Shown piece after piece: positions 40,614 to 64,000 of a stretch of 64,000 nt of DNA (position 1 is the first letter of the stretch; every line of letters begins with the position of its first letter). The position numbers and the translations under genes are program-made. The notes under the pieces were generated by a model. It searched no databases, had not been told where the DNA came from, and saw nothing but the letters and a program-made list of their open reading frames with translations. This DNA is from Rhodothermales bacterium (GTDB lineage: Bacteria > Bacteroidota > Rhodothermia > Rhodothermales > UBA10348), in assembly GCA_017643395.1 (NCBI GenBank), contig JAEPNP010000003.1, positions 254,769 through 318,768 on the forward strand, written 5' to 3'.

Positions 40614-40624
40614 GTCGCGAAATA

Positions 40625-41647: not shown

Positions 41648-41660
41648 AAACCGCGATAGC

Positions 41661-43507: not shown

Positions 43508-43685
43508 TACCAGAGTTTCTCCACTTACTCCCTCCGCAGCGGTGGCGTTGGGGATGGTCTTCATGGCGGCGCTGGCCGTGTCTTTCCGACACGGAGCGTT
43601 CATTTCCCCTCCGGTCGTATTGGGTGTCGGGCTGGCCCTCCTGTGGATCTTCCGGCCTCGGTCAGTCGAGGCGGCCAAGCGTTAG
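43500..43685 (+). CDS. Small 2-TM membrane protein (61 aa), hypothetical
   Basis: Begins MTDTRVSPLTPSAAVALGMVFMAALAVSF...VVLGVGLALLWIF. The ATG overlaps the upstream stop region. The 3' end overlaps the convergent LRR gene stop by 4 nt. Confidence 0.4.
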   Translation: MTDTRVSPLTPSAAVALGMVFMAALAVSFRHGAFISPPVVLGVGLALLWIFRPRSVEAAKR

Positions 43686-45850: not shown

Positions 45851-45969
45851 GGGAGCTTCGGGAGAATGCCCTGCAAGCTATCCGATCGAACGAGGTCAGG
45901 CCGAACCCTTCCGGGCGGGTCGCCTGCGCACGCCTCCCGCCCGCGTCTGCGAGATGTCGAACCGCACAT

Positions 45970-46440
45970 CTACCCCAGCACATCGACCGGGTCGCCGACC
46001 CGAATCAGCCCGTCCGAAAGAATCTGCACCCGCAAACCCCCGCGCCCGATCATGGCGGGGAGCACGGTGATGCCGGTTTTCCGCTCCAGGTATTTGCAAG
46101 GCTGGCAGAGGCGCACTCCCTTGACGTCGATCTCTCCAAGGCGAATGCGCTGTTTGACCAGCGCATTCAGTTCAATGCCGGAGACCAGCACGTTGCGCCG
46201 ACTGTCGGCCGCAGTCAAGGGAACGCCTTGCCGATTCAATTCCTCGAGAGCCTCGGTAGAGATCAGCGTCAACTCTCGTTTGGGTCCGGCCCAGCGAGAA
46301 AGCGAGCCGGCATTGGCATAGTACCGGTCTCCCACCAGACCGCGGCCTGCGACGGCCCGGGCCTCCGCGACCGATTGCATCGGAGCGCCGCGATCGGCGG
46401 CGATGAAGATGGCTTCGATGCGGCCGGGAGGGACCGTCAC
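45970..46440 (-). CDS. MOSC-domain protein
   Basis: 156 aa. The pattern GDRY...ELTLISTEALEEL...RRNVLVSGI.LN......IRLGEI...GVRLCQPC is typical of the MOSC beta-barrel with its conserved Cys. The GTG start overlaps the upstream stop (GTGA). Confidence 0.85.
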   Translation of the reverse strand: MTVPPGRIEAIFIAADRGAPMQSVAEARAVAGRGLVGDRYYANAGSLSRWAGPKRELTLISTEALEELNRQGVPLTAADSRRNVLVSGIELNALVKQRIRLGEIDVKGVRLCQPCKYLERKTGITVLPAMIGRGGLRVQILSDGLIRVGDPVDVLG

Positions 46441-48842: not shown

Positions 48843-48877
48843 TGCAGCCGTTTCGAGCACCCCCAGGCAACCCATGT

Positions 48878-49471
48878 TTAGTCCCGTGCCGGAGTGATCA
48901 TCACGTGGGCGCCCGCAGTCCCTGGATACATCAGCCACGGTTGCAGCGGCCCGGCCGGGGAGGTAGCCAGGCCCGTGGATTCCGCTGTGGCGTACGGCGT
49001 GTAGATGACATAGCGGAGGAATCGATTCTCGACCGTTCCGGTAGCAGCATCGAAACTGTCGCCTGTCAGCACATAGAGCGCCGCGGGCGTTTCCGGCATG
49101 GGCAACTCCCCCGAATCTGCGGCGGCGTAGCGCCTGGTTCGCACGGTCTGGTTGTCCATGCCCTGGGCGCGAAGCTCGCGTCCCATCGCCATGAAGGGCT
49201 CAATGGAGGCGTGATAGCAGGCTACGTTGAAGCCATCTCGGCTGGGGTCGTCCGCGAGACAGACCAGTTCATTTTCTCCGACGCGCAGGTCGGTATAGGC
49301 ACCGTTCGCGTCGAAACCAATCACCCTCGCGCCGTCACGCAGATCTTCCGGGGCGGCCTGAACGGCCCCCGCAATCTGGTCGGCGGCAGGGACCATCTGG
49401 GCGCTGCTCGTTGCGGGGTTGCAATGCAGGAGAAGCAGACCGAGCAGTGAGGTCAGCAGGACGGCTTTCAT
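48878..49471 (-). CDS. Secreted protein of unknown function
   Basis: 197 aa. Signal peptide MKAVLLTSLLGLLLLHCNPATSSAQ. No motif I can name. Confidence 0.65.
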   Translation of the reverse strand: MKAVLLTSLLGLLLLHCNPATSSAQMVPAADQIAGAVQAAPEDLRDGARVIGFDANGAYTDLRVGENELVCLADDPSRDGFNVACYHASIEPFMAMGRELRAQGMDNQTVRTRRYAAADSGELPMPETPAALYVLTGDSFDAATGTVENRFLRYVIYTPYATAESTGLATSPAGPLQPWLMYPGTAGAHVMITPARD

Positions 49472-49546: not shown

Positions 49547-51520
49547 TCAGGCGGCCGGGACAAGGCGGCCGATTACCCCTCGCAATTCCTCGATATAAAC
49601 CGGCTTACTCAGGTACGCGTCTGCCCCTGCGGCGAGGTATTCCTCCCGGGCCCCGCTCAGTGCGTTGGCGGTGACGACGATGATGGGTACGCGTGCCGCG
49701 AGCGTGCCGGACATCCGGATCCGCTGGATAGCCTCATCTCCGGTCATCTCCGGCATCTGGATGTCCATGATGACCAGGTCGTATTCGCCGCTGCACGCCA
49801 GCTTGAACGCGTCACGGCCGTTAGTCACGGTGTCGACGCGGTCGAAGCCGTCGACCCGCAGGAATTTTTCGATCACCCGCTGGTTCAACTCATTGTCCTC
49901 TGCCAACAGCACACACCGACCGGTGGGTCCCCTGTCCACTTCCGGGATCGACACAGGCGCCGCGGTTGCCCGGGGTTCGAGCTCGACATAGAGCCCGCCT
50001 GTCGGCACGTCTACGCTGAATGTCGTTCCCCGCCCGATCTCGCTTTCCACCGCGATGCTGCCTCCCATCAGTTCGACGAGGTTCTTTACGATGGAAAGTC
50101 CAAGTCCGGCGCCGCCGTGTCGGCGGGTGTGGGAGCCATCGGTTTGATAGAACCGCTCGAAGATGTTCGACAACTCCTCCTGCGGAATACCGGGTCCGGT
50201 GTCGACGATTTCGAAGCGAACGGTCTGCTGATCAAGCGGGATGGTGCGCACCGACACCGAGCCCTGTTCGGTGAACTTTGCGGCGTTACCCAGCAGGTTG
50301 ACAAGAATCTGCTTCAGCCGGTCCGGATCCGTGTTGAAGCGGGCGTTGCGTATCTCTCCGGTCTCGATTGAGAGCCCTTTATGCTCCACGGTGCCTCGTA
50401 CCGTATCGACTGCCTCCGAAACGATTGTGGCCAGCTCGGCCTCCCGCTGATCGATGGTTACGTAGCCGGCCTCGATGCGAGCGATATCAAGCACATCGTC
50501 GATAAGGCTGAGCAGGGTGGTCGAGGACGCCTTGATCACGTCGAGCCAATCCTGCTGGGCCGAGTCGGGGCCCATCGCCTGAAGCACCTGGCAACCACCC
50601 ACAACACCGTTGAGCGGTGTTCGAATCTCGTGACTCATGGTCGCGAGGAATTCCGACTTGAGGCGAGACGCCCTTTGGGCTTCTGCGGTCTGTTGTTTGA
50701 GCTCTTCTCGCACGGCAATGTCGTCAGACACGTCGTAGTTGACTCCCGTCAGTCTGTAGTCACCCTGTTCACCGGTGCGCTGGGCCTGAGTTCGAATGTG
50801 CCGAACCTGCCCGTCCGGGTGGTGAACCCGGAACATGCCGTGGAACTCGCCTCCGAGCTCCATGACATCGGCGACCTTGCCCTGCACCCGTTCCAGATCC
50901 TCCGGATAGACCCGCTTGGACCAGAACTCGTACGACCCGTCAAACGCCTCCGGGTCTGCCCCGTAGAGTTCGAACATGGTCTCGTCCCAGCTCAGTTTGC
51001 CCGTTTCAGGATTCCATTCCCAAATGCCGATCTGACCTGCCGTCGTGGCCAGCGACAGCCTCTCGGACAGCTTGCGGGACTCACGCTCCGCCTCGGATCG
51101 CGATTCGATTTCTGACTGGAGAAGCTCGTTCTGATCGCGGTAGTGCTGGGGACCCGGAATGGCCAGTGCATCTGGCAGCAGCTTCCAGAGCATTGCCGCC
51201 GTAATCAGGGAGACGATGCCCGTAACGGCCTTCAGAAGGCCGTCTGGACCGTAGAGGGGGTTCCAGACCAGATAGATATTGAACAGGTGGGTCGCACCGC
51301 AGAGCAGTATGAACGCAGTGAACAGGTAGAACACGCTCTTGAAACCCAGGTCCTTCCGCCGTTTGGTGAAGAGGTAGAGGGCGATGGGAATCGAGAAGTA
51401 CGACAGCGCGATGACGGCATCGGATATCACATGCAGCCAGAGGATTTCTGGCTTCCAGAGGTAGCACATGCCGTGTGGCATGAACGAGCCGGACTGGAAG
51501 AATTCGGCGATCTTTTCCAT
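49547..51520 (-). CDS. Hybrid sensor histidine kinase: ETR1-like ethylene-binding transmembrane domain + PAS + HisKA + HATPase_c + REC
   Basis: 657 aa. N-terminal 3-TM domain: [20 protein letters not shown]...[15 protein letters not shown]...[20 protein letters not shown] (see finding). Coiled coil; PAS ([16 protein letters not shown]). H-box [11 protein letters not shown]-boxes DTGPGI and [13 protein letters not shown]: [10 protein letters not shown]...[14 protein letters not shown]. Confidence 0.9.
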
Positions 51521-51787: not shown

Positions 51788-52687
51788 ATGCAACGCATAC
51801 TCATAACAGGAAGCAGCAGCGGATTTGGATTCCTTGCGGCACAAACACTGACAAAAGCCGGCCATGTGGTTTTTGCGACCATGCGGGACCCCGCCGGGCG
51901 CAACTCCGAGGCGGCAGCCAGGCTGACCGAGTCTTCCTCTCAGCAGGACGGCAGATTGCACGTGCTTGATCTCGATGTGACGAGTGATGCGTCCGTCGAG
52001 GCGGCCGTGGAGCAGGCAAATGAGTTGGAGGGAGGCATTGATGTTCTGGTGAACAACGCCGGATTCGGCGGCGGTGGCCTGACGGAGACATTCACGCCGG
52101 CGCAGTTCAGCCGGATGTTTGAAGTCAACGTGTTTGGTGTTCAGCGCATGAATCGCGCCGTACTGCCGGCGATGCGGCAGCGGGGTTCCGGGCTGCTCAT
52201 CCACATCTCCAGCACCATGGGCCGCATCGTGATCCCGTTTGCCGGTGCCTACACGGCCACCAAGTTTGCCCTGGAAGGGCTCTCTGAAACCTACCGGTAC
52301 GAGCTGGCGCCCCACGGCATTGAGTCGGTCATCATCCAGCCCGGCGGGTTCGGCACCGACTTCTTTGGATCCATGCTCCAGCCGGAAGACGCTGCCCGGG
52401 TCGAGACCTATGGAGAGGCGGCCGCCATGCCCCAGCAACTCTGGTCCGGCATGGGCGAGATGATCGCGAGCGGGCAGGCCCCGGATCCGCAGATTGTCGC
52501 CGACGCCATCCTGGAGGTGATTTCGGCTGAGCCCGGCGCCCGACCGGCGCGCATGGTTGTCGATCCAATGACGGGCGGCGAGGGTCCCAAGGCGCTGAAC
52601 CAGACTGCAGCAGCCGTTCAGGAGCAACTACTCTCCGGGTTCGGCATGGAATCGTTGCTGCACGTGGCGGAATCAAGCGAAGTCTGA
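51788..52687 (+). CDS. Short-chain dehydrogenase/reductase (SDR) family oxidoreductase
   Basis: TGSSSGFG cofactor motif, NNAG, catalytic S...YTATK. Confidence 0.9.
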   Translation: MQRILITGSSSGFGFLAAQTLTKAGHVVFATMRDPAGRNSEAAARLTESSSQQDGRLHVLDLDVTSDASVEAAVEQANELEGGIDVLVNNAGFGGGGLTETFTPAQFSRMFEVNVFGVQRMNRAVLPAMRQRGSGLLIHISSTMGRIVIPFAGAYTATKFALEGLSETYRYELAPHGIESVIIQPGGFGTDFFGSMLQPEDAARVETYGEAAAMPQQLWSGMGEMIASGQAPDPQIVADAILEVISAEPGARPARMVVDPMTGGEGPKALNQTAAAVQEQLLSGFGMESLLHVAESSEV

Positions 52688-52740
52688 TCCCGCCTCCGGA
52701 TAGACAGACACCCATCCGCCGGGTGCTGGTCACAGCCAAA

Positions 52741-52781
52741 AACAGGGGACGACCGGCAGGGTCGTCCCCTGTTCTGATTTT
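52741..52781 (+). terminator. Rho-independent terminator
   Basis: aacaggggacgacc-ggcag-ggtcgtcccctgtt forms a perfect 14-bp stem followed by ctgatttt. Confidence 0.8.
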
Positions 52782-52905
52782 GTGCGCCTCTGACAGCGAC
52801 GGGCGGCGTGTTTCCCTCCGCATGGCCTTCTTCGAGTGGGCCGCCCCGACAGGGCAGTTGCAGCTACCACACTGAATCCTGTCAGGCCAGCATGCGTAGG
52901 GACGC

Positions 52906-53274
52906 GTGATGCGCAGATTCCGCGCCATAGCTTCCATCAGCCTGCTCGCCAGCCTTTTGCTGGGCACGCTGGTAGCTCCGCTGGCCCACCTGGGCTGGAT
53001 GGAGATGGGCGGCATGGAAATGACGGCCATGTCCCACTCGATGGACATGGAGTCTGCGGCCGAAGACGGGGACTTCTTTAGCCCGTTCGAGGAGTGCATC
53101 GAGGAATGTCCGTACCTCCAGCTTCTGCAGACCCAGTCGCCCGGACTGGCCGATCTGGCCGCCCGGGACCGGGGTGCCGAGGCCGTGGAAAAGGAATTCT
53201 CGGAACAGGGAAGGCAGGATGACGGCCGGTTGGACCGCACCATCCGGCCACGTGGACCGCCAGCAGTGGCCTGA
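52906..53274 (+). CDS. Small membrane-anchored Met/His/Cys-containing protein (paralog of 61289..61633), head of TonB-receptor locus A
   Basis: 122 aa. N-terminal TM MMRRFRAIASISLLASLLLGTLVAPLAHL. Met-rich MEMGGMEMTAMSHSMDM. Cys pair ECIEEC. C-terminal IRPRGPPAVA resembles the IRGPPVAA end of the paralog. Confidence 0.6.
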   Translation: MMRRFRAIASISLLASLLLGTLVAPLAHLGWMEMGGMEMTAMSHSMDMESAAEDGDFFSPFEECIEECPYLQLLQTQSPGLADLAARDRGAEAVEKEFSEQGRQDDGRLDRTIRPRGPPAVA

Positions 53275-53407
53275 ATGGTGCCGCTCGGCACCTTGATTTA
53301 GGTAATTCGCGCTCCCGGACGCGTGTCCGGGCTCGCCATTGGCATTCGGCCCCACGAGTTGGACGATCCGCTGCTAGCGGTTCGCGTCCGCATATCCCCT
53401 TGATTCC

Positions 53408-54250
53408 ATGTCTCGTCTCGTTCTGCTTCCGCTCTTTCTGGCTCTGCTCATCACTGCCTGTGACTCGAATGTCATGGACGATGAGGACATGATGGCCATG
53501 ACTACCCTGCGCCTGGAGCCCGTATTCGACGGTCAGCCGCTGGTCATGGGCAGCACATACACCCACAACGGCACGGCCATCAATTTCTCCGCCGCTCGTG
53601 TCTACATCTCTGACATCACCCTCATCGCCGAGGATGGCACCGAGACGGTGATTCAAAGCGATCCGCTGACGGTCCCGGCCAAGGCCGCCGATGACTCGGA
53701 TGTGACGCACACAGTCTCGAACCGGGTAATTTTCGCCAAGCACGACCACGCGCATCACGAATACGATCTGGGTCACGTGCCGGTCGGCGAGTACCACGGC
53801 GTGGAATTCAACGTCGGCATTGCCGGTACGGACAACCGCATCGACGCGACGCAGGTGCCTGCAAGCCACCCGTTGGCCAAGCAGACCGACCTCAACAACC
53901 ACTGGAGCTGGTCCAACGGCTACATCTTCGTGCGCCTGGACGGCCAGGTAGATTCCGACGGCGACGGCACGCCGGATACGGCCTGGGAGACCCACCTTGG
54001 CAAGGACAACTTCCTGCGCGAAGTGCACCTGCACGCAGACTTTGAAGTGGATCAGGAAGGCACGACGCAGATCCATGTGATGCTGGACTACCACAAGCTG
54101 CTGGAGGGCGTGGACCTCGCTGACCCGGTCCAGCGCATCTGCCACACGGGCAACAATCTGCCGGTGGCCAACGCGGTTGCCAGTGAGATCTCGGGCTCCT
54201 TCATGTTCCACGGCGTGCACGACTCCGACCACGACGGACACGACCACTGA
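53408..54250 (+). CDS. MbnP-like lipoprotein (metal-binding partner of a di-heme peroxidase), His-rich C-terminus
   Basis: Lipobox LLITAC followed by acidic DSNVMDDEDMM. ARVYISDITLIAEDG, GEYHGVEFNVGIAG, and HPLAKQTDLNNHWSWSNGYIFVRLDG...THLGKDN match the MbnP pattern I recall (RFYVS..L...DG; G.Y.G..F.LGVP; PL....M.W.W..GY.F; HLGS). Tail HGVHDSDHDGHDH. A di-heme CCP gene follows immediately. Confidence 0.7.
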   Translation: MSRLVLLPLFLALLITACDSNVMDDEDMMAMTTLRLEPVFDGQPLVMGSTYTHNGTAINFSAARVYISDITLIAEDGTETVIQSDPLTVPAKAADDSDVTHTVSNRVIFAKHDHAHHEYDLGHVPVGEYHGVEFNVGIAGTDNRIDATQVPASHPLAKQTDLNNHWSWSNGYIFVRLDGQVDSDGDGTPDTAWETHLGKDNFLREVHLHADFEVDQEGTTQIHVMLDYHKLLEGVDLADPVQRICHTGNNLPVANAVASEISGSFMFHGVHDSDHDGHDH

Positions 54251-55212
54251 TGCGAGCCTGGACTGCGCTCATAGCGGTCCTGGTGTCGGGTTGTGTGTTG
54301 GCGGGGCCGGAAGGCTCGGAATCGCTGTCGGTGCCTGATGACCTGCCGGCCGGCTTCGAGCCGATTCCGGTGCCCGCCCACACACCCCTGACAGCCTCGC
54401 GGGTGTCGCTCGGTGAACGCCTGTTCTTCGATCCGTCGCTCTCGGCGGATGGCAGCGTTTCCTGTGCGTCCTGCCACAAACCCGAACTGGCGTTCGCGGA
54501 TGACGTGGCCGTCAGCCCGGGAGTGGAAGGACGAACCGGCATTCGCAACGCACCTTCCCTGGTCAATGTGGCATGGCAGGACCTGCTGTTCTGGGACGGA
54601 GGGGCCTTTACGCTGGAGCTACAGGCCGTCGGGCCACTGGAGGCCAGGGACGAAATGGACCGGCCCCTCGCCGAGGTACTGGAGCAACTGAACGGCGACC
54701 CTTCCTACCGGGAGGCCTTTTTGGACGCGTTCGGCGATGAGGCCACGGTGCAGACGTTCACGCAGGCACTCGGCGCGTACCAGCGCACTATTCGCAGCGG
54801 GGGATCCCGCTTCGACCGGGAGGCGCTGACGCCCCACGAGGACGCGGGTCGTGCGCTTTTTTTCGGCCGGGCAAACTGCGCCTCCTGTCACAGCGGGTTT
54901 CTGCTGACGGATCAGAGCTTCCGCAGCAACGGACTGTCCGTCGCTGCGGACTCCGGCCGGGCACGCATCACGCTGCGTCCGGAGGATCGCGGCCTGTTCA
55001 AGGTCCCTTCCCTTCGAAATGTGAGCCTCACGGCACCCTACATGCACGACGGCCGCTTTGAGTCCATCGAAGATGTGATCGAGCACTACGACAAGGGGGG
55101 CGAGACCGCATCGCCCGGCATCCGGCCGCTGAATCTGACCGCGGCGGAGAAGCGGCAGCTCGAGGCGTTCTTGCGCGCGCTGGAGGACACCTCAATTCGC
55201 ACGGGACTATGA
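54250..55212 (+). CDS. Di-heme cytochrome c peroxidase / MauG-family enzyme (MbnH-like)
   Basis: 320 aa. Two CxxCH heme sites (SCASCHKPE, NCASCHSGF). Family motifs: RNAPSLVN, LFWDG, FKVPSLRNV, APYMHDG. The ATG shares one base with the upstream TGA. Confidence 0.9.
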   Translation: MRAWTALIAVLVSGCVLAGPEGSESLSVPDDLPAGFEPIPVPAHTPLTASRVSLGERLFFDPSLSADGSVSCASCHKPELAFADDVAVSPGVEGRTGIRNAPSLVNVAWQDLLFWDGGAFTLELQAVGPLEARDEMDRPLAEVLEQLNGDPSYREAFLDAFGDEATVQTFTQALGAYQRTIRSGGSRFDREALTPHEDAGRALFFGRANCASCHSGFLLTDQSFRSNGLSVAADSGRARITLRPEDRGLFKVPSLRNVSLTAPYMHDGRFESIEDVIEHYDKGGETASPGIRPLNLTAAEKRQLEAFLRALEDTSIRTGL

Positions 55213-55985
55213 AACGAATCCTGTTGACCCTATTCGGCCTGTCGCTGGTCGGATGTGCCCCTGACATCACGGAGACGGACTTCTTCAGCCGTCACCCGGA
55301 CGCACCGGTGGGGGACGAGAGTGTTGAGGTAACGTCGGTGCAGGACGGTGCCCTGGAGCTTCGGGTCACGGCGCCTCGCCCATTACAATGGGGTCACAAC
55401 CTGATATCACTGGAAGCCTTTGCGGGCGGCGACCCTGCCGGCGCGGAGGCAACCGTCACGCCCTACTTCCTTGTTGAGGGCGACCGTATTCCGGTGCCTT
55501 TTGATCCCGTAACGCTCAGGAGCGGGGACGAACCAGCGGTCCTTTATCTGCTTGAGCCTGTTGAGCTCGATGGGCGCTGGGTGCTGGATGTGGTCTGGCA
55601 AAGTGCCGGCAGCTCGGGGACGCGCACGGTCGATGTCACAGTCCGCCCCGGTCTCTGGGTGGGCACGGTGCCCGGAACCGGAGAGTACCTGACGTGGGTC
55701 CGTCCCACGGAGCCGCGCACCGGGCAGGACGTGCTCGAGCTAGCGCTGCATCGCTTCATTGAGGGCCGCTTCCAGCCAGTTGAGGGCGTGCCGTTCGACC
55801 TCTATCCGTATATGGACATGGGCGGGGGAGAGGGTCACAGCACGCCGTATGCGCCCCCCGGAAGTGTCGGAAATGGACGGTATAGGGGCGAGATCAACTT
55901 CATTATGTCCGGCGGTTGGGACCTGACTGTGTATGTGGGCGCCAACCGGACGGCGGTGCTCTTTGAAGGATTTGAGGTGCGATGA
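55209..55985 (+). CDS. Lipoprotein with YtkA/FixH-like domain
   Basis: Lipobox LSLVGC. C-terminal GRYRGEINFIMSGGWDLTVYV matches the (Y.....F.M.G.W.L.V.V) ending I associate with YtkA-like domains. ATGA overlaps on both sides. Confidence 0.55.
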   Translation: MKRILLTLFGLSLVGCAPDITETDFFSRHPDAPVGDESVEVTSVQDGALELRVTAPRPLQWGHNLISLEAFAGGDPAGAEATVTPYFLVEGDRIPVPFDPVTLRSGDEPAVLYLLEPVELDGRWVLDVVWQSAGSSGTRTVDVTVRPGLWVGTVPGTGEYLTWVRPTEPRTGQDVLELALHRFIEGRFQPVEGVPFDLYPYMDMGGGEGHSTPYAPPGSVGNGRYRGEINFIMSGGWDLTVYVGANRTAVLFEGFEVR

Positions 55986-58216
55986 TGATGAGACTCATTC
56001 TCCTACTCGTTTTGCTGACGCCGGCGCAGGTGATCGCGCAGTCGCTGCATGGTCGCGTGCTGGATCACGCCACCATGGAGGGCATCCCGCTGGCCACCCT
56101 GCTTGTGGTAGGTACCGATCAGGGCACGGCGGCCGACATCGACGGACACTTCCACCTGGATCTGCCCGAGGGCGCGCGCGAACTCCGCGTCTCTGCCGTT
56201 GGTTACACGTCGGAGCGCTTCCTGATTACGGACGCCATGCGTTCCGGCGAGCCCTTCCACCTGCATCTGCATCCCAACGTGATTCAGCATCAGGAGGTGG
56301 TGGTGAGTGCAGACGGCGGTGCGGTGCGGGACCCAGCGGCATCGCCCCATGTGCAGCGCGCCACCGAAGATCTGATGGATCGCGTGCCGGGTGCCGACTT
56401 CATTCAGCGCGCCAATTTTGCCTGGGAGCCCGTGATACGCGGCATGAGTGGCGGCCAGATTGGCCTGGTGATAGACGGCATCAAGGTCATCGGCGCCTGC
56501 ATCGATGAGATGGACCCCACCTCAGCGTACGTGGAGGTGGAAAACCTGGAGCGCCTCGATCTGACCAAGGGCGGGTTTGATCTGAGCAGCGGCTCCCAGA
56601 TTGGTGGTGCAATCAATCTGGTTACCCAGAAGCCGTCACTTTCTGACCCGTTCAGCCTGTCCAGCGAAGCCGGCTTCGAGTCGGCCTCCGGGCTTCGGCG
56701 CGGGCGCGTGGTAGCATCCGCCTCCGAAGGTGACGTCGGTGTGCGTTTCAGCTATTCGTACAAGCGAGCGGCGGATTTCCGGCCCGGGGGCGGCGCAGCC
56801 GACGTGGCCGGTTCGGGGTACGAAAAGAACAATTACAAGGCGGACGTCGCGTGGCAACCGCACCATGCCCATCGTCTGGAGGCCTCATTTCTCGGGGACA
56901 ATGCGTGGGGCGTCGGCTATCCGGTTCTTCTGATGGACGCCACGCTTGCCAAGGCCCGGATTTACAGCCTGACGCACACGCTGACGCCCCATAGCGGTGG
57001 CGCGCCGCATCATGTCGAGACCAAGGTGTATCACAACACCGTGGATCACTGGATGGACGATTTCGGCCGCGATGTGCTGGAGCGCCAGGTTATGCGCGGC
57101 ATGAATATGCCCATGTATGGCCTCACGCGCACGAGCGGTTTGATCAGCACCGCGGACATCCGGCTTGATGGGGGCAATCGCGTGGGGGTGACCCTCGATG
57201 CCTATCGCACGAAGAGTTTCGGTGACATGTGGATGTTCAGTGTCTTCGAGGGCATCCAGGACATGTACCTGTTGAATCTGGGCGATGTGGTGGTCAACCA
57301 TGCGGCCCTCGCAGTGAACGGTACGTACCACCTTTCAGAGCGGCTGTCGCTGCGGGCCGACGCCCGAATGGACGTGTCGCCTCGAGATGTGAAGCGGGAG
57401 GAATCCCGGTCGATTCTCGAAGGACGATGGGACACGGATGATCTTTCCCGCACGTACGTGCTGGGCAATCTCAGCACAACGCTGGAGTATGCGTTTTCGC
57501 CGGCCACGCGGGTGCGGTTCGGCATGGCCAACGTCAGCCGTCTGCCCACACACATCGAGAACTACGGCCACTACGTGTACAACTACGTGGACGGCTACTT
57601 CTATACCGGAAATCCCGATCTGAAGCCGGAGCGTTCGAGGCAAGCGGAAATCGGCATCGATCATTGGGGGCAACGAGCAGGATTGCGCGCCAGCGTATTC
57701 GCCAACCACGTGCGCAACTACATCATCGGTGAGGGGGACACCGGTCTGACGGAGGGGTCATCTACCTACCGGTTTCGGGTGTACCGCAACGCGGACGCAG
57801 CGCTATTGATGGGCGGCGAAGTGTCTGCGGTTGCCGAGTTGGGCAAGGGCATCTCAATCGCAGGCGCGGGGTCGTACACGTGGGGGCAGAACCTGGAGTT
57901 CGACGAGCCGCTTTACCTGATGCCGCCCCTCAGCGGCATGCTCAGCCTGCGGGCTGATCGGGGGAGACGCTGGGCGGAGCTCGAAGCACGCATGGCCATG
58001 CCCCAGAACCGCGTGTCCCGCCAGGTTGCCCGGGAGGACGGCACGGACGGCTACTTCATCCTGAATGTGCGTGGCAGTCTGCCGGTGCCGGGTGGCGCCG
58101 AGCTGAAGGTGGGTGTGGAGAACCTGCTCGACACCTTCTACCAGGAGCACCTCAGCTTCGGCAATCTGCCGAACGAGGGGCGCAACCTGTACGTAGCGCT
58201 CGCCTGGGCGTACTAG
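55982..58216 (+). CDS. TonB-dependent receptor with N-terminal CarboxypepD_reg domain (locus A)
   Basis: 744 aa. Signal peptide MMMRLILLLVLLTPAQVIAQ. CarboxypepD_reg: LHGRVLDHATMEGIPLATLLVVGT...DGHFHL. Plug: PVIRGMSGGQIGLVIDG. Beta-barrel with terminal aromatic ...LYVALAWAY. Confidence 0.92.
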   Translation: MMMRLILLLVLLTPAQVIAQSLHGRVLDHATMEGIPLATLLVVGTDQGTAADIDGHFHLDLPEGARELRVSAVGYTSERFLITDAMRSGEPFHLHLHPNVIQHQEVVVSADGGAVRDPAASPHVQRATEDLMDRVPGADFIQRANFAWEPVIRGMSGGQIGLVIDGIKVIGACIDEMDPTSAYVEVENLERLDLTKGGFDLSSGSQIGGAINLVTQKPSLSDPFSLSSEAGFESASGLRRGRVVASASEGDVGVRFSYSYKRAADFRPGGGAADVAGSGYEKNNYKADVAWQPHHAHRLEASFLGDNAWGVGYPVLLMDATLAKARIYSLTHTLTPHSGGAPHHVETKVYHNTVDHWMDDFGRDVLERQVMRGMNMPMYGLTRTSGLISTADIRLDGGNRVGVTLDAYRTKSFGDMWMFSVFEGIQDMYLLNLGDVVVNHAALAVNGTYHLSERLSLRADARMDVSPRDVKREESRSILEGRWDTDDLSRTYVLGNLSTTLEYAFSPATRVRFGMANVSRLPTHIENYGHYVYNYVDGYFYTGNPDLKPERSRQAEIGIDHWGQRAGLRASVFANHVRNYIIGEGDTGLTEGSSTYRFRVYRNADAALLMGGEVSAVAELGKGISIAGAGSYTWGQNLEFDEPLYLMPPLSGMLSLRADRGRRWAELEARMAMPQNRVSRQVAREDGTDGYFILNVRGSLPVPGGAELKVGVENLLDTFYQEHLSFGNLPNEGRNLYVALAWAY

Positions 58217-58227
58217 AGTCAGTCTGC

Positions 58228-58506
58228 CTACCCATCGCCCAATTTTTGAAAGGCCCAGTAGCCGATGCCCGCGATGCCGGCGAGTTGCAGTAAGTGCAGC
58301 CACCACAGACGGGTGCCCTCAAGCAGCACATAGCGGGAGCCCATCAGGGCCTCTATGCGCTGGGCCTGCACCTCCACCGGGCCCCGGTAGAAAGGGGCCC
58401 ACATGAGGTCGCCGGAGGGTTCGACCTGCCAGGGGATGTAGAAGACGGCAACGATGAGAAAGGCGATAACCGCCGTGCCCAGGGCGCCGCGCTGGTTGTG
58501 GTTCAT
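58228..58506 (-). CDS. Small 2-TM membrane protein (92 aa) immediately downstream of TonB receptor B
   Basis: Start taken at MNHNQRGALGTAVIAFLIVAVFYIPW (ATG 58506), 2 nt after the receptor stop. The track ORF's longer N-terminus overlaps the receptor gene. Confidence 0.45.
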   Translation of the reverse strand: MNHNQRGALGTAVIAFLIVAVFYIPWQVEPSGDLMWAPFYRGPVEVQAQRIEALMGSRYVLLEGTRLWWLHLLQLAGIAGIGYWAFQKLGDG

Positions 58507-58508
58507 GG

Positions 58509-60707
58509 CTACAGGTAGACGCGATAGACCAGACGCACGTTGCGACCGGGTTCCGGCATCACACTCTTGACACGGGACAAGTGGTCCCGGTACTCCGTAT
58601 TCGAGACGTTGTCGATGGCCAACGTCAGACTGTGGAGTGAGGTGCGGGAGCTGAACAGGTACTCCAGGAACAGATCTGGGACCAGATAGCCGCTGGTCGG
58701 CTCCTCGAACTCGCCCAGGCGCTCCTGCCGGGCCGAGCCGCGCAGGGTCGCCCCGACGGTCAGCGGCGAGCGATCGTAGCGAACCGACAGGCTTTGCCGA
58801 AACGGCGGTGTCCACGGAATTGGCTCGTCCAGCTCAGTCAGGGTGCCACGCACGAAGCTCAGGTTGCTGGAAACGGACCAGATATTGGACAGTCGGATGT
58901 CCACACTGCCTTCGGCGCCCTCCATCCTGGCATCGGAGCCGGCGTACTGGAAGATGGGCAGGTAGATGCGCGTGTTGAGCTCTCCGGTGTTCCTGGGAAA
59001 GATGTATCCCGAGAAGCGGTTCAGGTAGGCGGCCGCGTACCAGGAGACCCGGGGGCCTTCCCATCGGGACGATAGTTCGAAGCCGGTACCAGACTCCACC
59101 CCCAGGTCCGGATTGCCCACCTCGAAGGAATAAGCCGCAAGGTGCGGGCCCTCGGAGAAGAGTTCTTCGATGCCGGGCAGGCGAATGGAGCGCATACCGG
59201 ACGCGGCGAGGGTGAGTCTGGGATTGAGGGGCCACTTCAGGGCCGCTGATGCCGAGACTCCTCCGAACTTTTTCTGGGCGATGAGGCCGATGTCGGACAT
59301 GAACTCCCGGCTGGGCGTCACCTGGCGGAGATCGTAGCGCGCTCCGACTTCGAGTGAGGTGCCGCCCAGATCCACCGTCTGGTGACCGAAGCCGGCAACA
59401 GACCATTCGGTCGTCGCAGGCGTGGACGAGAACCCTCCCGATGCGTAATCGCGATGCTCGACCCAGAACCCGACAGCTCCATCCGTCAGGCGCCCGCGTC
59501 CTGCCGTGTGGGCGATGGCCGTCGCGTGATAGGAGAGGAGGCCGAATTCAATACCAACCGAGCCGTTGGATTCGAACTCCTGGTGGAAGTACCTGGAATA
59601 GCTTCCTTTTGCTTCCAGATGTCGAATGCCGCGGATTGGTGTGATCCACTCGCCCCTGGTCCGAAAGTGGCGTCGGTTGAGCTCGATGGAGACTCCTTCC
59701 GGGTGTGCACCTACAAATCCCCCGGGGATACCGTAGTGCGAATCATACAGGGACCCTGAGACTCCCAGGTAGCCCCAGGACCGGACAAGACTGGCGCCCA
59801 GGGACGCGGTACCCGTGTCCAGGGCGGTGTTGCCTAGTCGACCGTCGGGTGTGGCTACATCACCAGCAGCTCGATATGCGCCGTCCGCCCGGACCACGGC
59901 GCTGGTGCCTATCGGAGCCACGACCACGGCGCCGCCCGCCAGGCCTCGACTGGCACTCTGTCCCTGTCCCGAGAGGGTTGTGCGGACTTTGGAAGGCACG
60001 GAGCTCGGCACGTAGTCTCGCACCACGTTCACCGCACCGCCCAGCGTATTGGGGCCGTAAATGAGCGCGGCAGGTCCGCGCACGATTTCTATGCGGTCCG
60101 CGGTGATCGGGTCTACCACGAGGGCATGGTCCGATGTAGTGGCCGACAGGTCACCCGTGCGGCCTCCATCCTCGAGCACGAGCAGGCGCTCCCCGCCCAA
60201 CCCGCGCAGCACCGGTCGGGCGGGCGCGGGGCCCATCGACCGCATGGAAAGTCCCGGCTCCTGGTCCAGAGTTTCGGCGATCGTCGTGCCGAGCTGTTGC
60301 CTCAGTCGGCCGCCCCGCAGTTCGGAGGCAGCTTCGACAGTTTGCGCACCAAGTCCTTCGTCTACGACTACGACCTCAGCCGATTCGATGACGGAATCGC
60401 GCATGCGCAGCGTCAGTTCGAGCGTGTCCCCGGTAGCCACCGTGATGGTGGTTTCGAAGGGGAAGAAGCCGATGCGGAAGGCCTTGAGGGTGAACTGGCC
60501 CGCAGGCATTCTCCTGAGCAGGAACGCACCGTTCCCATCCGAAGTGGTGGAACGGTGCGCTTCCTGCACCAGGATCTGAGCAAACTCGACCGGCTCGCCT
60601 GAGGACGCACTAACTACGCGGCCCGTCAGCACGCCGGATTGCGCTCTTGCCGGAGCGCTGATCATCCAGATCGCCAGTAGGGCTATGGCGATCCGGATTG
60701 TTCTCAT
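58509..60707 (-). CDS. TonB-dependent receptor with N-terminal CarboxypepD_reg domain (locus B)
   Basis: 732 aa. Signal peptide MRTIRIAIALLAIWMISAPARAQ. CarboxypepD_reg: LTGRVVSASSGEPVEFAQILV...DGNGAFLL. Plug: PVLRGLGGERLLVLEDG and IEIVRGPAALIYGPNTLGGAVNVV. Confidence 0.92.
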   Translation of the reverse strand: MRTIRIAIALLAIWMISAPARAQSGVLTGRVVSASSGEPVEFAQILVQEAHRSTTSDGNGAFLLRRMPAGQFTLKAFRIGFFPFETTITVATGDTLELTLRMRDSVIESAEVVVVDEGLGAQTVEAASELRGGRLRQQLGTTIAETLDQEPGLSMRSMGPAPARPVLRGLGGERLLVLEDGGRTGDLSATTSDHALVVDPITADRIEIVRGPAALIYGPNTLGGAVNVVRDYVPSSVPSKVRTTLSGQGQSASRGLAGGAVVVAPIGTSAVVRADGAYRAAGDVATPDGRLGNTALDTGTASLGASLVRSWGYLGVSGSLYDSHYGIPGGFVGAHPEGVSIELNRRHFRTRGEWITPIRGIRHLEAKGSYSRYFHQEFESNGSVGIEFGLLSYHATAIAHTAGRGRLTDGAVGFWVEHRDYASGGFSSTPATTEWSVAGFGHQTVDLGGTSLEVGARYDLRQVTPSREFMSDIGLIAQKKFGGVSASAALKWPLNPRLTLAASGMRSIRLPGIEELFSEGPHLAAYSFEVGNPDLGVESGTGFELSSRWEGPRVSWYAAAYLNRFSGYIFPRNTGELNTRIYLPIFQYAGSDARMEGAEGSVDIRLSNIWSVSSNLSFVRGTLTELDEPIPWTPPFRQSLSVRYDRSPLTVGATLRGSARQERLGEFEEPTSGYLVPDLFLEYLFSSRTSLHSLTLAIDNVSNTEYRDHLSRVKSVMPEPGRNVRLVYRVYL

Positions 60708-61213
60708 TGAACGGTGATCTGAATGGCGTTGCTTGCGCTGACCGGCGGCGTGGTGAAGTCCGCGTGGTCATTGTGAAGCAGGCGCAACTGGAATCCAGTC
60801 GTTCCGGCGGATTCACCGTGCAGGTGGAAGGCCCATTTGCCGTCTTCGGAGTGCTGCTCGAATTCGGCGATGCCCTCTGTGGCAAACGCGTGGCCGAGGG
60901 AGAACTCCGCTCCGAGATCCTCGGAATGAATCTCCTCACCTTCGTGGCCGAGGAATTCGACCGAGATCAGCGGGGTCTCTTCACCCGCCGAGATGGCGAA
61001 ACCGCACTGTGCGGTGGCACAGGTGACTTCGCCCTCCAGGACGCGCCAGACTTCGGCGCCATTCATCATGACGGCGATGCCTTCAATTTCGTCTGCATGA
61101 TCGTCGTGGTCGTCATCATCCACGGGGTTGCTGTCACATGCAGCAAGAAAGAGGACAGCGGGGAGTACAAAAAGGGTGGCCCAGCCGCGGGCCGTAAGGA
61201 ACGTGGGTTTCAT
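60704..61213 (-). CDS. His/Asp/Glu-rich lipoprotein, unknown family, translationally coupled to TonB receptor B
   Basis: Lipobox LFLAAC followed by DSNPVDDDDHDDHADE. Further His pairs: FLGHEGEEIHSED, WAFHLHGE, LLHNDHADF. ATGA overlap with the receptor start. Confidence 0.7.
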   Translation of the reverse strand: MKPTFLTARGWATLFVLPAVLFLAACDSNPVDDDDHDDHADEIEGIAVMMNGAEVWRVLEGEVTCATAQCGFAISAGEETPLISVEFLGHEGEEIHSEDLGAEFSLGHAFATEGIAEFEQHSEDGKWAFHLHGESAGTTGFQLRLLHNDHADFTTPPVSASNAIQITVQ

Positions 61214-61288
61214 TGTTTCCTGTTCGCAAAGCTTGAGTCAATCGGATCGTTGGGGCGATGGGCTCCGCAACGATCACGTTGCAGAGGC

Positions 61289-61633
61289 TCAAGCGGCGAC
61301 AGGGGGGCCACGTATCGGCGCGCGGTCACGTGTGAGCGCACCGGAGGTCTCATGGGATGTCAACCAGGCCTTGCCGAGTCCGCTCAGGTCAACGAGGTCC
61401 TCCGCTGTCCCGGATTCGGCGACGGTGCGGGTTACGCAAAGCGTGCAGTCGTCCGGAGAGGCCGCGGACAGGTCGTGCCCATCGCTGAAGCCGCCTTCCG
61501 GGCCGTGGTGGTGCTCGGTGCCGGCCCATTCGAGCGCATGCTCAATCTGGTGCAGTGGCGGCGCGAGCACCCACCCGAAGACCAGGAGGGCGAGCAGGGT
61601 CAGGGCGCTATGTCGGCGGTGGCTGGAGGCCAT
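61289..61633 (-). CDS. Small membrane-anchored His/Cys-containing protein (paralog of 52906..53274), head of TonB-receptor locus B
   Basis: Start taken at MASSHRRHSALTLLALLVFGWVLAPPLH (ATG 61633). His-rich EHALEWAGTEHHHGPE. Cys pair DDCTLC. C-terminus APIRGPPVAA. Confidence 0.6.
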   Translation of the reverse strand: MASSHRRHSALTLLALLVFGWVLAPPLHQIEHALEWAGTEHHHGPEGGFSDGHDLSAASPDDCTLCVTRTVAESGTAEDLVDLSGLGKAWLTSHETSGALTRDRAPIRGPPVAA

Positions 61634-61796
61634 GGATACAGGATCTCGGCTAAAGCCCGCCTCCGTGAAGGGGTTCCCGAGTTCGCGGCCGATGGCCATG
61701 TTATCCGGGGGCCGGGGCCGCGCTGTTGGCATTGCCACCCGTATACTTCCGGTCACCCCGGTTTGCTTCCCATCGCCTTATCTCGTGATCCCACCC

Positions 61797-64000
61797 ATGT
61801 CTCGATTCGGACCCCTTGTTCTGCTGCTTGCGCTGAGCCTGACGTCCTGCACGACCGTCAACGTAGACCCAGGCATGCAGGCCGCTTCCACTCCGACTGC
61901 GACGACCGCAAGTCGCCCGGCCACCCCTTCCTCAGCGACTGCTGCGAAGAGTCCATTCAAGAAGGCTTCCGAAGTACTCAAGGACACCCGCAAGGTGGAC
62001 GGATTTCTGACCTTCAACGTCAAGCGGGACCAGACGACGTATCTGACGCTGCCGCCGAGCCGCATGGACGCCGACATGGGTCTGGTCATGCATTACTCGT
62101 CCGGCAACGGCACGTTTGGTATTCAGGAGGGGCTGTACCTCTTCGATACCCGGTTGATGCGTTTCGAACGCGCGGCGGACAAGATCCATCTGGTGCACCG
62201 CAATACGCGGTTCATCGCCGATGAGGGCACCGGCATGCAACGCGCGCTGGAGGACAACATCGGACACTCGATTGTGCAGACATTCGACATCGCCGGTTTC
62301 GACTCCACGTCGGGCGCCTATGTGATCGACTTCACGCCTTTCCTGGTGTCCGACTATGCCGACATCGCGAGAGGCACCCGCTTCTACTTTCAGAGCCAGC
62401 GGGAGGCGCGGTTCGACAAAGGATCGAGCTGGGTGGAGCGCGTGCAGTCTTTCCCGAACAACTCGGAAATAGACGCGATGCTGACATTCCGGCCGACCGC
62501 TCCGGCCACCGCACAGGCGATCGGGATGGCGGATGCACGCTCGTTCTCGGCAGGGGTCCGGTACTCCTTCTTTGGACTGCCGGAGGTGCCCATGGCTGCC
62601 CGCGCCGCGGACAATCGCATTGGCTACTTCATCGATGCGGCGAAGGATTTCTCACAGGACAAGGCCTTCGATCCCATGGTGCGCCACATCAATCGGTGGC
62701 GACTTGAGAAAAAGGACCCGAGTGCCGAACGGTCGGAGCCGGTCACGCCGATCACCTTCTACATCGACTGGTCGGTGCCGGAAGAGTATCGGCCGTATGT
62801 GCACGAAGGTGTTGAGGCCTGGAACAAGGCGTTCGACGCGGCCGGATTCATCAACGCGATTCGCGCCGTGGACCCGCCGAAGGATGATTCCACGTGGAGT
62901 GCAGAGGACATTCGTTACTCGACCATCCGCTGGACCGCGGCATATCGCATGGGGTTTGCAATCGGCCCATCGCAGACCGACCCCCGCACCGGTGAAATCC
63001 TGAACGCAGACATCCTGCTCTCCAGCGAGTTTGTGAGCGGTTGGAGCAGCGAGTACGACGAGCTTCTGGAGACCAGGAGTTTCGAGCAGATGGAGGCGGA
63101 AATGGCCGAGTCGCTGGCGTTCGGTCTCCATGAGCGGATCTGCACCAACCAGATAGGGCGCCAGCAGTCCATGGGCTTGCTGAACGCCACGCTGCTGAGC
63201 GACGGTGTGGTTGCGAAGACCGGCGACATTCCGCTGGAGCTGATCGGAGTGCAGCTGCGTGACCTCACCATGCACGAGGTGGGGCACACGCTCGGTCTCA
63301 TGCACAATTTCGAGTCCTCATCGGCGATCGACTTCGGCATGCTGCAGGACAAGGACTACACGCGGCAGAACGGCGTGTACTCGTCGGTCATGGACTACGC
63401 CATCGTCAACATCAATCCCGACCGGGAGCGTCAGGGCTACTACGTCAACCCGGAGCCGGGTGCGTATGACGTGTTTGCCATTCGCTTTGGCTACACCCCG
63501 GAGGAAGACAAGATTCCAGGCATCCTTGCCGAGTCGGCCAACCCGCTGCACATCTACGGCTCGCACGAGGACGGGCCCAACACCGGAATCGACCCTTACG
63601 TGAACACCTGGGATCTGTCGAGTGACCTGCTGGCTCACGCGCGGACACGCGCTGAGCTCGTCTCGGACATTGAGCCGAACCTGACCGAGCGCATGGTGGC
63701 CGATGGAGAGTATTTCGATGCCCTCCGCGGTGCGTACGCCGGGCTGCTGTTCGAGCGCTACAACACCGTGAACCACGCCACCAAGCTCGTCGGCGGTGTG
63801 CGGCTGAACCGCCTGCACAAAGGGCAGGGGATGGAGCCTATGGTGCCGCTGTCCGCGGCTGAGCAACGGGAGGCCGTTGAGTTCGTCATGAGCCAGTTCA
63901 TAGACGATGGGGTCATCGTGCCGAACGAGACGCTGCTGAACCGGTCGGTCCCGAGCATGCATCTGGACTTCGAGCGGCGCCCGACGGGGGCGCGCGACAT
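61797..64000 (+). CDS. Zinc-dependent metalloprotease lipoprotein (DUF4953/DUF5117-type), 3' end beyond the window
   Basis: Not in the ORF track because it has no stop in the window. ATG 61797 gives MSRFGPLVLLLALSLTSC (lipobox). I read the frame codon by codon to base 64000 without a stop. Zinc site HEVGHTLGLMHNF is encoded from 63273, followed by SSVMDY. Confidence 0.88.
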   Translation, partial: MSRFGPLVLLLALSLTSCTTVNVDPGMQAASTPTATTASRPATPSSATAAKSPFKKASEVLKDTRKVDGFLTFNVKRDQTTYLTLPPSRMDADMGLVMHYSSGNGTFGIQEGLYLFDTRLMRFERAADKIHLVHRNTRFIADEGTGMQRALEDNIGHSIVQTFDIAGFDSTSGAYVIDFTPFLVSDYADIARGTRFYFQSQREARFDKGSSWVERVQSFPNNSEIDAMLTFRPTAPATAQAIGMADARSFSAGVRYSFFGLPEVPMAARAADNRIGYFIDAAKDFSQDKAFDPMVRHINRWRLEKKDPSAERSEPVTPITFYIDWSVPEEYRPYVHEGVEAWNKAFDAAGFINAIRAVDPPKDDSTWSAEDIRYSTIRWTAAYRMGFAIGPSQTDPRTGEILNADILLSSEFVSGWSSEYDELLETRSFEQMEAEMAESLAFGLHERICTNQIGRQQSMGLLNATLLSDGVVAKTGDIPLELIGVQLRDLTMHEVGHTLGLMHNFESSSAIDFGMLQDKDYTRQNGVYSSVMDYAIVNINPDRERQGYYVNPEPGAYDVFAIRFGYTPEEDKIPGILAESANPLHIYGSHEDGPNTGIDPYVNTWDLSSDLLAHARTRAELVSDIEPNLTERMVADGEYFDALRGAYAGLLFERYNTVNHATKLVGGVRLNRLHKGQGMEPMVPLSAAEQREAVEFVMSQFIDDGVIVPNETLLNRSVPSMHLDFERRPTGARD

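Follow-up and report, generated by a model that had tools for sequence, protein, structure and literature searches.

Organization of the locus

The stretch of DNA analysed here (64,000 nt, hereafter the window) comes from a metagenome-assembled genome (MAG) of a Rhodothermales bacterium (GCA_017643395.1, contig JAEPNP010000003.1) and has a G+C content of ~62% throughout. On its forward strand lies a row of genes for an MbnP-like lipoprotein, an MbnH/MauG-type di-heme enzyme, a YtkA-like lipoprotein and a TonB-dependent transporter (TBDT). The four open reading frames (ORFs; 53408..54250, 54250..55212, 55209..55985 and 55982..58216) are joined by the junction letters TGATG (1-nt overlap, 54250), ATGA (4 nt, 55209..55212) and ATGA (4 nt, 55982..55985). 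An earlier note on this DNA had described four genes with overlaps of 1–4 nt and assigned them to these families; the coordinates and junction letters bear out the first statement, and hidden Markov model (HMM) matches the second. However, that account missed a fifth, leader ORF (52906..53274), which opens at the very coordinate where the note began and which we judge to be the most informative element of the locus. It starts 130 nt 3' of a strong terminator-like hairpin closing the upstream SDR gene. The features of the operon are listed below (coordinates in the window, strand, description).

51788..52687, upstream SDR gene
52741..52773, +, terminator-like hairpin of 14 pairs, then CTGATTTTGT, after the SDR gene; marks the 5' boundary of the operon
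52906..53274, +, leader ORF, 122 aa from GTG; probable divergent CruR/DUF2946-type arrest peptide
52987..53001, +, leader codons H28 to M32; family motif A-P-L-S/A-H-x-x-x-M, invariant, candidate metal ligands
53095..53109, +, leader codons C64-I-E-E-C68; C68 is the invariant Cys of the family, H-x-x-C in most relatives
53251..53262, +, leader codons R116-G-P-P119 (CGT GGA CCG CCA); putative ribosome-arrest motif
53275..53407, +, intergenic region of 133 nt between the leader and mbnP
53277..53292, +, hairpin GGTGCC-GCTC-GGCACC, then TTGATTT; perfect 6-bp G+C stem starting 3 nt after the leader stop
53408..54250, +, MbnP-family lipoprotein, 280 aa; PF20243, WxW, MbnP fold
53459..53461, +, lipobox Cys18 of the MbnP-like protein
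53900..53911, +, H165-W166-S-W168 of the MbnP-like protein; W166 is the counterpart of the Trp that MbnH turns into kynurenine
53993..53995, +, invariant H196 of the MbnP-like protein
54209..54247, +, His-rich tail HGVHDSDHDGHDH at the C-terminus of the MbnP-like protein
54250..55212, +, MbnH/MauG-type di-heme enzyme, 320 aa, lipobox LVSGC
54463..54477 and 54877..54891, +, CxxCH motifs of the di-heme enzyme at residues 72 and 210
55087..55089, +, Tyr280 of the di-heme enzyme, at the position of the MauG Tyr294 heme ligand
55209..55985, +, YtkA/CtaK-like lipoprotein, 258 aa; PF13115
55812..55838, +, invariant Y-P-Y-M202-D-M204-G-G-G-E-G-H210 of the YtkA-like lipoprotein
55982..58216, +, OprC/NosA-type TonB-dependent copper transporter, 744 aa; Plug, TonB beta-barrel and CarboxypepD_reg N-terminal domain
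56498..56512, +, C173-x-x-x-M177 in the transporter plug; copper site
57047..57055, +, H356-x-M358 in the transporter barrel; copper site

Related loci were fetched from 50 genomes for gene-order comparison. The order leader–MbnP–MbnH–YtkA–TBDT was conserved in the Rhodothermales/Rhodothermia loci (17 of them complete), and the MbnP–MbnH pair in 46 of 50 related loci. Where start calls were unambiguous, the ytkA-like and transporter genes overlapped by 1–4 nt in most loci.

An OprC-type copper transporter

The best PDB match of the transporter was Pseudomonas aeruginosa OprC (E 2e-33), and its top NCBIfam model was TIGR01778 (TonB-copper), at 167.2 bits and short of the cutoff of 472.45. In the OprC alignment, IGAC173IDEM177D fell on LGACPNRMD and VDH356WM358D on ADHIMD, with C173, M177, H356 and M358 as the counterparts of OprC C143, M147, H323 and M325; both motifs were invariant in 18 orthologues. 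In OprC, Cys143, Met147, His323 and Met325 form a 'CxxxM-HxM' site that binds ionic Cu(I)/Cu(II) directly and without a partner (PMC8610252). Given this complete copper site, the window transporter should import ionic copper; it is of the OprC/NosA type and not an MbnT-like chalkophore receptor. The earlier analogy with MbnT was therefore wrong in kind. No STN signalling domain was found in the transporter, and no FecIR-like genes nearby.

An MbnP-like protein and its di-heme partner

The MbnP-like protein is identical to JJ896_11835 ('MAG: Rhodothermales bacterium'). Checked against the two family models, it passed Pfam PF20243 (118.9 bits, gathering threshold (GA) 27) but missed NCBIfam TIGR04052 (64.3 bits, cutoff 140). 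Residues N164, H165, W166, W168 and H196 were invariant across 28 homologues (NHWxW), and the WxW was kept in 57/57 Bacteroidota/Rhodothermales MbnP relatives. A single-sequence phmmer search of the PDB gave His-tag artefacts only and was set aside; the family profile built from the 28 homologues was required to reach Methylosinus trichosporium OB3b MbnP (7L6G), with H-W-x-W-x-x-G-Y aligned on A-W-N-W-Q-A-G and W-E-x-H-x-G on W-M-V-H-V-G. This places W166-S-W168 on the AWNW of 7L6G, locating the conserved Trp whose position the earlier note had wanted to see aligned, and H196 on the His of the MVHVG strand. In M. trichosporium MbnP, Kyn174 derives from the Trp of the WxW motif and is needed for copper binding (PMC11951088).

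An AlphaFold2 model built on the family alignment had a predicted local distance difference test score (pLDDT) of 87.9. When it was searched against the PDB with Foldseek, the six chains of 7L6G were the sole matches at E<=1e-3 (prob 1.0, E 6e-11 to 8e-10, template modelling (TM) score 0.46–0.53); the next match had an E of 0.07. The Pfam threshold, the invariant W166-x-W168 and this sole significant fold match identify the protein as a real, though divergent, member of the MbnP family, as had been proposed. Its only Cys residues are the lipobox Cys18 and C245 (in RICHTG). The four-Cys motif is thus missing, as previously remarked, but its absence is not special to this gene, since a low Cys content is the rule in the clade: the mature parts of the 57 relatives mostly have 0–2 Cys, with 3–6 in a few Bacteroidia ORFs. 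The TIGR04052 family model is itself now named after WxW and not Cys. The His-rich tail described for this protein is also present; roughly 40% of close orthologues are missing it.

The partner enzyme matched PF03150 (CCP_MauG) at 183 bits. Its best NCBIfam model was that of MbnH (TIGR04039, 223 bits), but at a score under the cutoff of 362.85; the MauG model TIGR03791 gave 213.6 bits against a cutoff of 443.85. MbnH (6E1C) was the best PDB match (9e-46), and Tyr280 aligned to residue 294 of MauG chains and to the Tyr of 6E1C; a Tyr occupied this position in 40 of 48 orthologues. We take Tyr294 of MauG to be the axial ligand of the six-coordinate heme; canonical di-heme peroxidases have a Met ligand at that position. 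The best match and Tyr280 agree with the proposal of an MbnH/MauG-like partner. With MbnH as the closest structure, a Tyr ligand, the MbnP fold and WxW, the pair has the look of an MbnH that modifies a protein and the MbnP that is its substrate.

A YtkA-like lipoprotein

The match of the third coupled gene to PF13115 was marginal (27.9 bits, GA 25.9) and covered residues 189–241 in the C-terminal domain only; there was no NCBIfam match. Nearly all of the 85 relatives found are annotated with PF13115, and the few that bear names are mostly called 'FixH family protein'. Invariant features were the lipobox C16, C-A-P-D-I-T-E-T-D-F, Y-P-Y-M-D-M-G-G-G-E-G-H-S-T-P and N-F-I-M233-S-G-G-W, and the two Met/His motifs form a putative Cu(I) site. 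The structural model (pLDDT 91.7) consists of two tandem Ig-like sandwiches; a fold search with it returned generic tandem Ig-like domains alone and was dropped as a lead to function. In Bacillus subtilis, YtkA (CtaK) is a lipoprotein that aids CuA assembly under copper scarcity, and YcnJ shares the domain (PMC13344008).

A leader family with a fixed spacing

NCBI calls the leader from an ATG at 52909 (121 aa, 'hypothetical protein JJ896_11830'). It has a basic N-terminus and a hydrophobic signal anchor, followed by A-P-L-A-H28-L-G-W-M32, a Met-rich stretch and C64-I-E-E-C68-P-Y. The R-G-P-P occupies residues 116–119 of 122 and is followed by A-V-A, three codons before the stop at 53272..53274. 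All loci with enough upstream sequence (22) had a small leader ORF save one (L015), which has a different ORF there. G20, P25, H28, M32, C68, R116, P118 and P119 were invariant and the remainder poorly conserved. The distance from the Cys to R(G/A/D)PP is 47 residues in the window and was 47 or 48 in 22/22 loci, with the motif 2–7 codons before the stop. The gap after the leader is 133 nt in the window and 109–417 nt in the 22 loci, whereas the other operon junctions overlap.

A profile of the leader family, run exhaustively over 1.84 billion cluster representatives, found relatives in only 103 of them. Among the 106 relatives with an arrest motif (two more lack it), this was RGPP in 81, RAPP in 22 and RDPP in 3, at 1–8 residues before the stop, and the spacing to the Cys was 46–48 residues in 102. 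H-x-x-C occurred in 60 of the 106 and CxxC in four. DUF2946 was the sole recurrent Pfam family, matched by 13 of 18 orthologues at E<=10 (best 1.9e-5) and by 27 of 101 relatives at E<=0.01 (best 1.1e-7).

CruR itself belongs to DUF2946: it has a CXXC, 45 aa and then a RAPP three residues before its end, and its gene is followed by a long intergenic region. In Bordetella, the growing peptide arrests its ribosome at RAPP; copper acting through the CXXC releases the stall, after which Rho ends transcription ahead of the TBDT gene (PMC9426467). The presence of MbnPH-like genes and OprC-type TBDTs in cruR operons had already been remarked on (Roy et al. 2022, PMC9426467). Stalling has since been demonstrated in vitro, with RAPP and RGPP as the two strongest stallers and enriched upstream of TBDT genes, in an EMBO J survey that did not find upstream ORFs (uORFs) of copper-related genes in Bacteroidota (PMC12992588). 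Since the present family lies upstream of an MbnP annotated as 'hypothetical', it would probably have been overlooked by a survey that relied on annotation. The class Rhodothermia, we assume, belongs to Bacteroidota in the sense of GTDB. The family would thus bring CruR-type arrest peptides to a lineage from which copper-related RAPP/RGPP uORFs were reported absent, with a single Cys, accompanied by a His or not, able to stand for the CXXC. Its ruler of 46–48 residues, conserved more strictly than the sequence, places a constraint on metal-driven release of the stalled ribosome.

We regard the window leader as a divergent, copper-sensing arrest peptide of the CruR/DUF2946 type, which probably shuts the operon off when copper is plentiful. 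A CruR-like leader predicts copper-repressed expression; the direction of regulation is deduced here solely from the downstream genes being importers.

The window copy is atypical beside those of the related loci (L001 to L022), with two His (6–15 in orthologues), a Met-rich stretch (MEMGGMEMTAMSHSMDMES) and CxxxC for H-x-x-C. In addition, G exceeds C in its 3' half, the reverse of the orthologues.

Signals after the leader stop were also considered. Hairpins follow the stop in many of the 22 orthologous loci and were weakly more stable than shuffles (mean z -1.0). An intrinsic-terminator attenuator at 53277..53292 was dropped because the T tract is weak, terminator-like sites were not enriched (7 against 4.6 ± 2.4 expected) and a ribosome stalled at RGPP reaches ~53272 and would not melt the hairpin. 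The last 150 nt of the leader are C-rich and G-poor in most orthologues (mean C-G +0.11), as for a Rho utilization (rut) site; this skew is absent from the window leader and was rejected as evidence at this locus. An Rfam search of 52500..62300 returned nothing credible.

A probable copper-starvation uptake operon

The locus is likely a five-gene copper-starvation uptake operon (leader, mbnP-like, mbnH-like, ytkA-like and oprC-like TBDT), with the leader as its off-switch under copper sufficiency. Among ~45 ORFs scanned across the window there was no DUF692/MbnB, MbnC or other methanobactin biosynthesis family, in a scan that cannot exclude an MbnA precursor of 20–30 aa. The copper setting proposed earlier, and the stated lack of methanobactin maturation genes, thus hold, with a precursor of MbnA size beyond the reach of the test.

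The proposed sequence of events begins under copper scarcity, when a ribosome translating the leader would stall at R-G-P-P with P118 in the P site, and the stall would keep downstream transcription and translation running, as in Bordetella CruR. The OprC-like transporter would take ionic copper at Cys173, Met177, His356 and Met358 and import it with TonB energy. The lipid-anchored MbnH-like enzyme would oxidize Trp166 of the MbnP-like protein to kynurenine, making a Cu(I) site, and the MbnP-like and YtkA-like lipoproteins could then serve as membrane-tethered acceptors or relays, most likely on the periplasmic side, from which copper would reach cytochrome oxidase or other cuproenzymes in the manner of CtaK. 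Once copper is sufficient, it would bind the nascent leader (at C68, perhaps with H28/M32) at the exit of the ribosome tunnel and free the stall; the leader would be completed and the operon turned off through premature termination.

Several points weigh against this account. The NCBIfam scores of the operon proteins are all under the equivalog cutoffs. The Met in the M-V-H strand of M. trichosporium MbnP is Glu, Ala or Asp in the clade. The window leader itself had no DUF2946 match in the Pfam search, has CxxxC and not CXXC, and its 3' part is neither C-rich nor G-poor and carries no obvious rut-like site. The operon encodes no inner-membrane copper importer. CutF, also a DUF2946 protein, follows the opposite logic, in which copper-induced stalling turns the downstream gene on (bioRxiv 2025.02.05.636593). 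Finally, the organism is an uncultured MAG, and the copper operon is read from its sequence.

What the widespread MbnP/MbnH pair does outside methanotrophs is a question on which this operon bears. It ties the pair through overlapping genes to an ionic-copper importer of the OprC type and a CtaK-like lipoprotein, all under a predicted copper-sensing leader. This coupling argues that kynurenine-copper proteins serve the trafficking of imported ionic copper and not methanobactin chemistry, and makes the operon a compact five-gene system for probing that role.

Alternative explanations

Alternative readings differ in where the lipoproteins sit, what the leader does and what the operon handles. 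The earlier note had proposed that the MbnP-like protein is a surface-exposed capture protein. We consider it possible, though clearly less probable than a periplasmic location, that this lipoprotein, perhaps together with the YtkA-like one, is brought to the surface, captures copper and hands it to the transporter in the manner of the SusD, BtuG and HmuY partners of Bacteroidota TBDTs, with the other parts of the operon working as proposed above. The mature N-terminus of the MbnP-like protein (CDSNVMDDEDMM, C-D-S-N-V-M-D-D-E-D) has the acidic character that the note described, with an invariant C-D, and many N-termini of Bacteroidia MbnP relatives are near the Bacteroidota export signal (CDDDDN, CSNNDDDE, CSEDSDDQ). 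That signal, however, has acidic residues at +3..+5, with the position critical (PMC5080379), and those of the MbnP-like protein lie out of register at +2 and +7..+10, so that surface exposure is conceivable without being supported by this feature. A SusD-like lipoprotein of a related Rhodothermales locus does have a canonical C-T-D-D-F. The CarboxypepD_reg domain of the transporter recalls SusC-like transporters, the neighbouring ZnuD-like transporter gene also follows a lipoprotein gene (its product starting CDSNPVDDDDHDDH), and MopE, likewise a copper protein with a kynurenine and a di-heme partner, is associated with the cell surface (PMC3621798). OprC, on the other hand, needs no partner to bind ionic copper (PMC8610252), and maturation by a heme enzyme must take place in the periplasm. 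A tail rich in His would be apt for capturing metal, but it is the feature that ~40% of close orthologues do without. A broader version, in which the leader may be a mechanistically distinct copper sensor (H28/M32/C68 in place of CXXC, RGPP) and the MbnP-like and/or YtkA-like proteins surface partners of the OprC-type transporter in a 'Sus-like' arrangement, is a speculative one to which we give little weight; if true, a kynurenine cofactor made by an enzyme would be borne by the capture protein at the cell surface.

The leader could instead be a small membrane-anchored copper-binding protein, akin to a chaperone or metallophore, with RGPP structural or incidental. Such a role, which we consider unlikely, would accommodate a signal anchor followed by invariant His, Met and Cys and by His- or Met-rich stretches, the annotation of the gene by NCBI as a normal coding sequence, and the first proposal for CutF as a chaperone (PMC9426467). 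It sits poorly with a segment from C68 to RGPP that is nearly unconserved in sequence and yet of fixed length in almost all relatives, a combination that fits a ruler between sensor and peptidyl-transferase centre and not a folded domain. Nor does it account for an RxPP that always lies 1–8 codons from the stop, or for a long untranslated gap in an operon whose other four genes overlap, and CruR is, by experiment, a regulatory uORF. An operon induced by copper, in which a CutF-type leader switches on detoxification at high periplasmic copper and the di-heme enzyme acts as a peroxidase, is very improbable. CutF provides a precedent, as a DUF2946 protein whose copper-induced stalling turns on CutO; a stem-loop lies just past the leader stop; and di-heme cytochrome c peroxidases (CCPs) remove H2O2 (PMC11892367). 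The stem-loop, however, lies ~115 nt from the mbnP start, too far away to mask the ribosome-binding site there. The di-heme enzyme carries a MauG-type Tyr ligand where peroxidases have Met, and the operon encodes no efflux pump or multicopper oxidase. It ends with the gene of a TonB-dependent importer that has the uptake site of OprC, and the OprC/NosA and CruR operons are copper-repressed. There is equally scant reason to expect import of a methanobactin-like chalkophore in the way of MbnT, with MbnPH working on that chelate or on its release. It was in methanobactin operons, beside TBDTs, that MbnPH pairs first came to light (PMC3621798), and the CrtA family imports chelated copper (PMC12914433), but the ~45 ORFs scanned across the 64 kb included no MbnB/MbnC or other biosynthesis gene, the closest relatives of the transporter are OprC proteins whose ionic-copper CxxxM-HxM is fully conserved, and both the STN domain and neighbouring FecIR-like genes are lacking. 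Uptake of ionic copper under a CruR-like leader is the reading that we retain.

Neighbouring genes and related loci

Convergent with the copper operon is a second metal operon led by an arrest peptide, with three genes on the reverse strand (61756..58509). Its features, and those of a further module in the window, are as follows.

61756..61289, -, second leader ORF; likely true start M42 at 61633
61213..60704, -, 169-aa lipoprotein starting CDSNPVDDDDHDDH, without a family match
60707..58509, -, ZnuD-like TBDT; PDB 4RDR at 1.8e-39, 'DH' of the plug kept
39714..40613, -, B12-binding MerR/HTH protein
40862..41647, +, bacteriorhodopsin-like protein
41661..42629, +, beta-carotene 15,15'-dioxygenase

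The second leader has C-T-L-C, 41 residues and then R-G-P-P three residues from the stop; it matched DUF2946 weakly and the HMM of the leader family at an E of 5e-7. A CruR-like leader before a zinc-type receptor was unexpected. In locus L001, a TBDT gene is directly preceded by a similar leader (461..850, C-T-S-C-41-RAPP). With its two arrest-peptide leaders, the region forms a small island for metal acquisition. A lipoprotein gene runs divergently from the second leader and off the end of the window (61785..64000, +); its product, at least 738 aa long, has DUF5117 and Met-zincin (DUF4953) domains.

On the other side, at a distance of 1.4 kb, lies the gene of a hybrid histidine kinase/response regulator (49547..51520, -) with an ETR1_N match at its N-terminus (1.8e-36). 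ETR1_N is the membrane domain of ethylene receptors and has a Cu(I) cofactor. A link to the copper operon was rejected: the kinase is missing beside orthologous operons, and its proximity is therefore treated as coincidence.

Elsewhere in the window, a ZnuA-type substrate-binding lipoprotein, an ABC ATPase and two ABC-3 permeases (5075..9022, +) look like a Zn/Mn ABC importer, and the genes at 39714..42629 look like a light-driven rhodopsin module with a retinal-forming enzyme and a possible light/B12 regulator. Type IX secretion C-terminal sorting domains (Por_Secre_tail) are present on four large proteins within 9078..15017 and 43682..48938: a DUF11 protein, an FG-GAP/ASPIC protein, a leucine-rich-repeat protein and a lactonase-like beta-propeller. 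These domains accord with an envelope of the Bacteroidota type.

Among related loci, the MbnP–MbnH pairs of Bacteroidia lack the leader, the YtkA gene and the OprC-like TBDT, and no leader ORF was found upstream of them by motif or HMM. Their neighbours include a Phenol_MetA_deg-like outer-membrane barrel, a DJ-1/YHS-domain protein with a TBDT, or DUF4625, and the pair is sometimes duplicated in tandem (partner loci L045 8873..9823; L047 9894..13246; L028 6520..6969; also L026, L034, L037 and L047).

Comparison with known systems

The closest counterparts of the pair are MbnP and MbnH of M. trichosporium OB3b (7L6G, 6E1C), with which it shares adjacent genes, the MbnP fold, WxW, a nearby TBDT, a copper context and a MauG-like di-heme partner with a Tyr heme ligand. 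Identity to that pair is just 16–19%, with a TM-score of ~0.5 and HMM scores below the TIGR04052/TIGR04039 cutoffs. Both window proteins are lipoproteins, the MbnP-like one being Cys-poor, without the four-Cys motif and with a His-rich C-terminal tail, and its family has an extra invariant His right before the Trp (NHWxW), where M. trichosporium MbnP has MAWNW. The setting differs as well, in that methanobactin genes are lacking and the partner TBDT is of the OprC and not the MbnT type. MopE/CorA of Methylococcus and Methylomicrobium offers a parallel, as a copper-repressed kynurenine copper protein whose gene adjoins one for a di-heme CCP-like protein, but its fold differs and it has no detectable sequence similarity to the MbnP family.

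The transporter resembles OprC and NosA (Pseudomonas stutzeri) in its plug and 22-strand barrel, with CxxxM in the former and HxM in the latter, and the Pseudomonas gene is preceded by a cruR homologue. In contrast to OprC, the window protein has a Bacteroidota-style CarboxypepD_reg domain, is translationally coupled to the YtkA-like gene and scores 167 bits against the TIGR01778 cutoff of 472. The YtkA-like protein shares with B. subtilis CtaK (YtkA) and YcnJ a membrane-tethered YtkA domain and a copper-supply setting; it differs from CtaK in its extra N-terminal Ig-like domain, its Gram-negative host and its operon linkage to a TBDT.

For the leader, the model is B. pertussis cruR(Bp2923)-crtA(bfrG)-bp2921, in which it likewise heads a copper-uptake TBDT operon with a long gap to the next gene. 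Common to both are an N-terminal export signal, a Cys-containing metal motif and R-x-P-P three residues from the C-terminus, and the spacer from metal motif to arrest motif is 45 ± 2 aa in CruR and 47–48 in the window family. The family differs from CruR in having mostly RGPP (81 of 106) for RAPP, a single invariant Cys, usually as H-x-x-C-[PEDT]-Y (CxxxC in the window copy), for CXXC, and the invariant His28 and Met32 at the end of the anchor, and most members fall under the Pfam DUF2946 threshold. It comes from Rhodothermales, whereas CruR has been described mainly in Proteobacteria, and the gene directly 3' is mbnP here and a TBDT gene for CruR. All parts of the operon are thus of described kinds, and what is new is their combination, the lipoprotein forms and the single-Cys/RGPP leader subfamily; the operon is a variant of systems described in Proteobacteria and no new kind of system.

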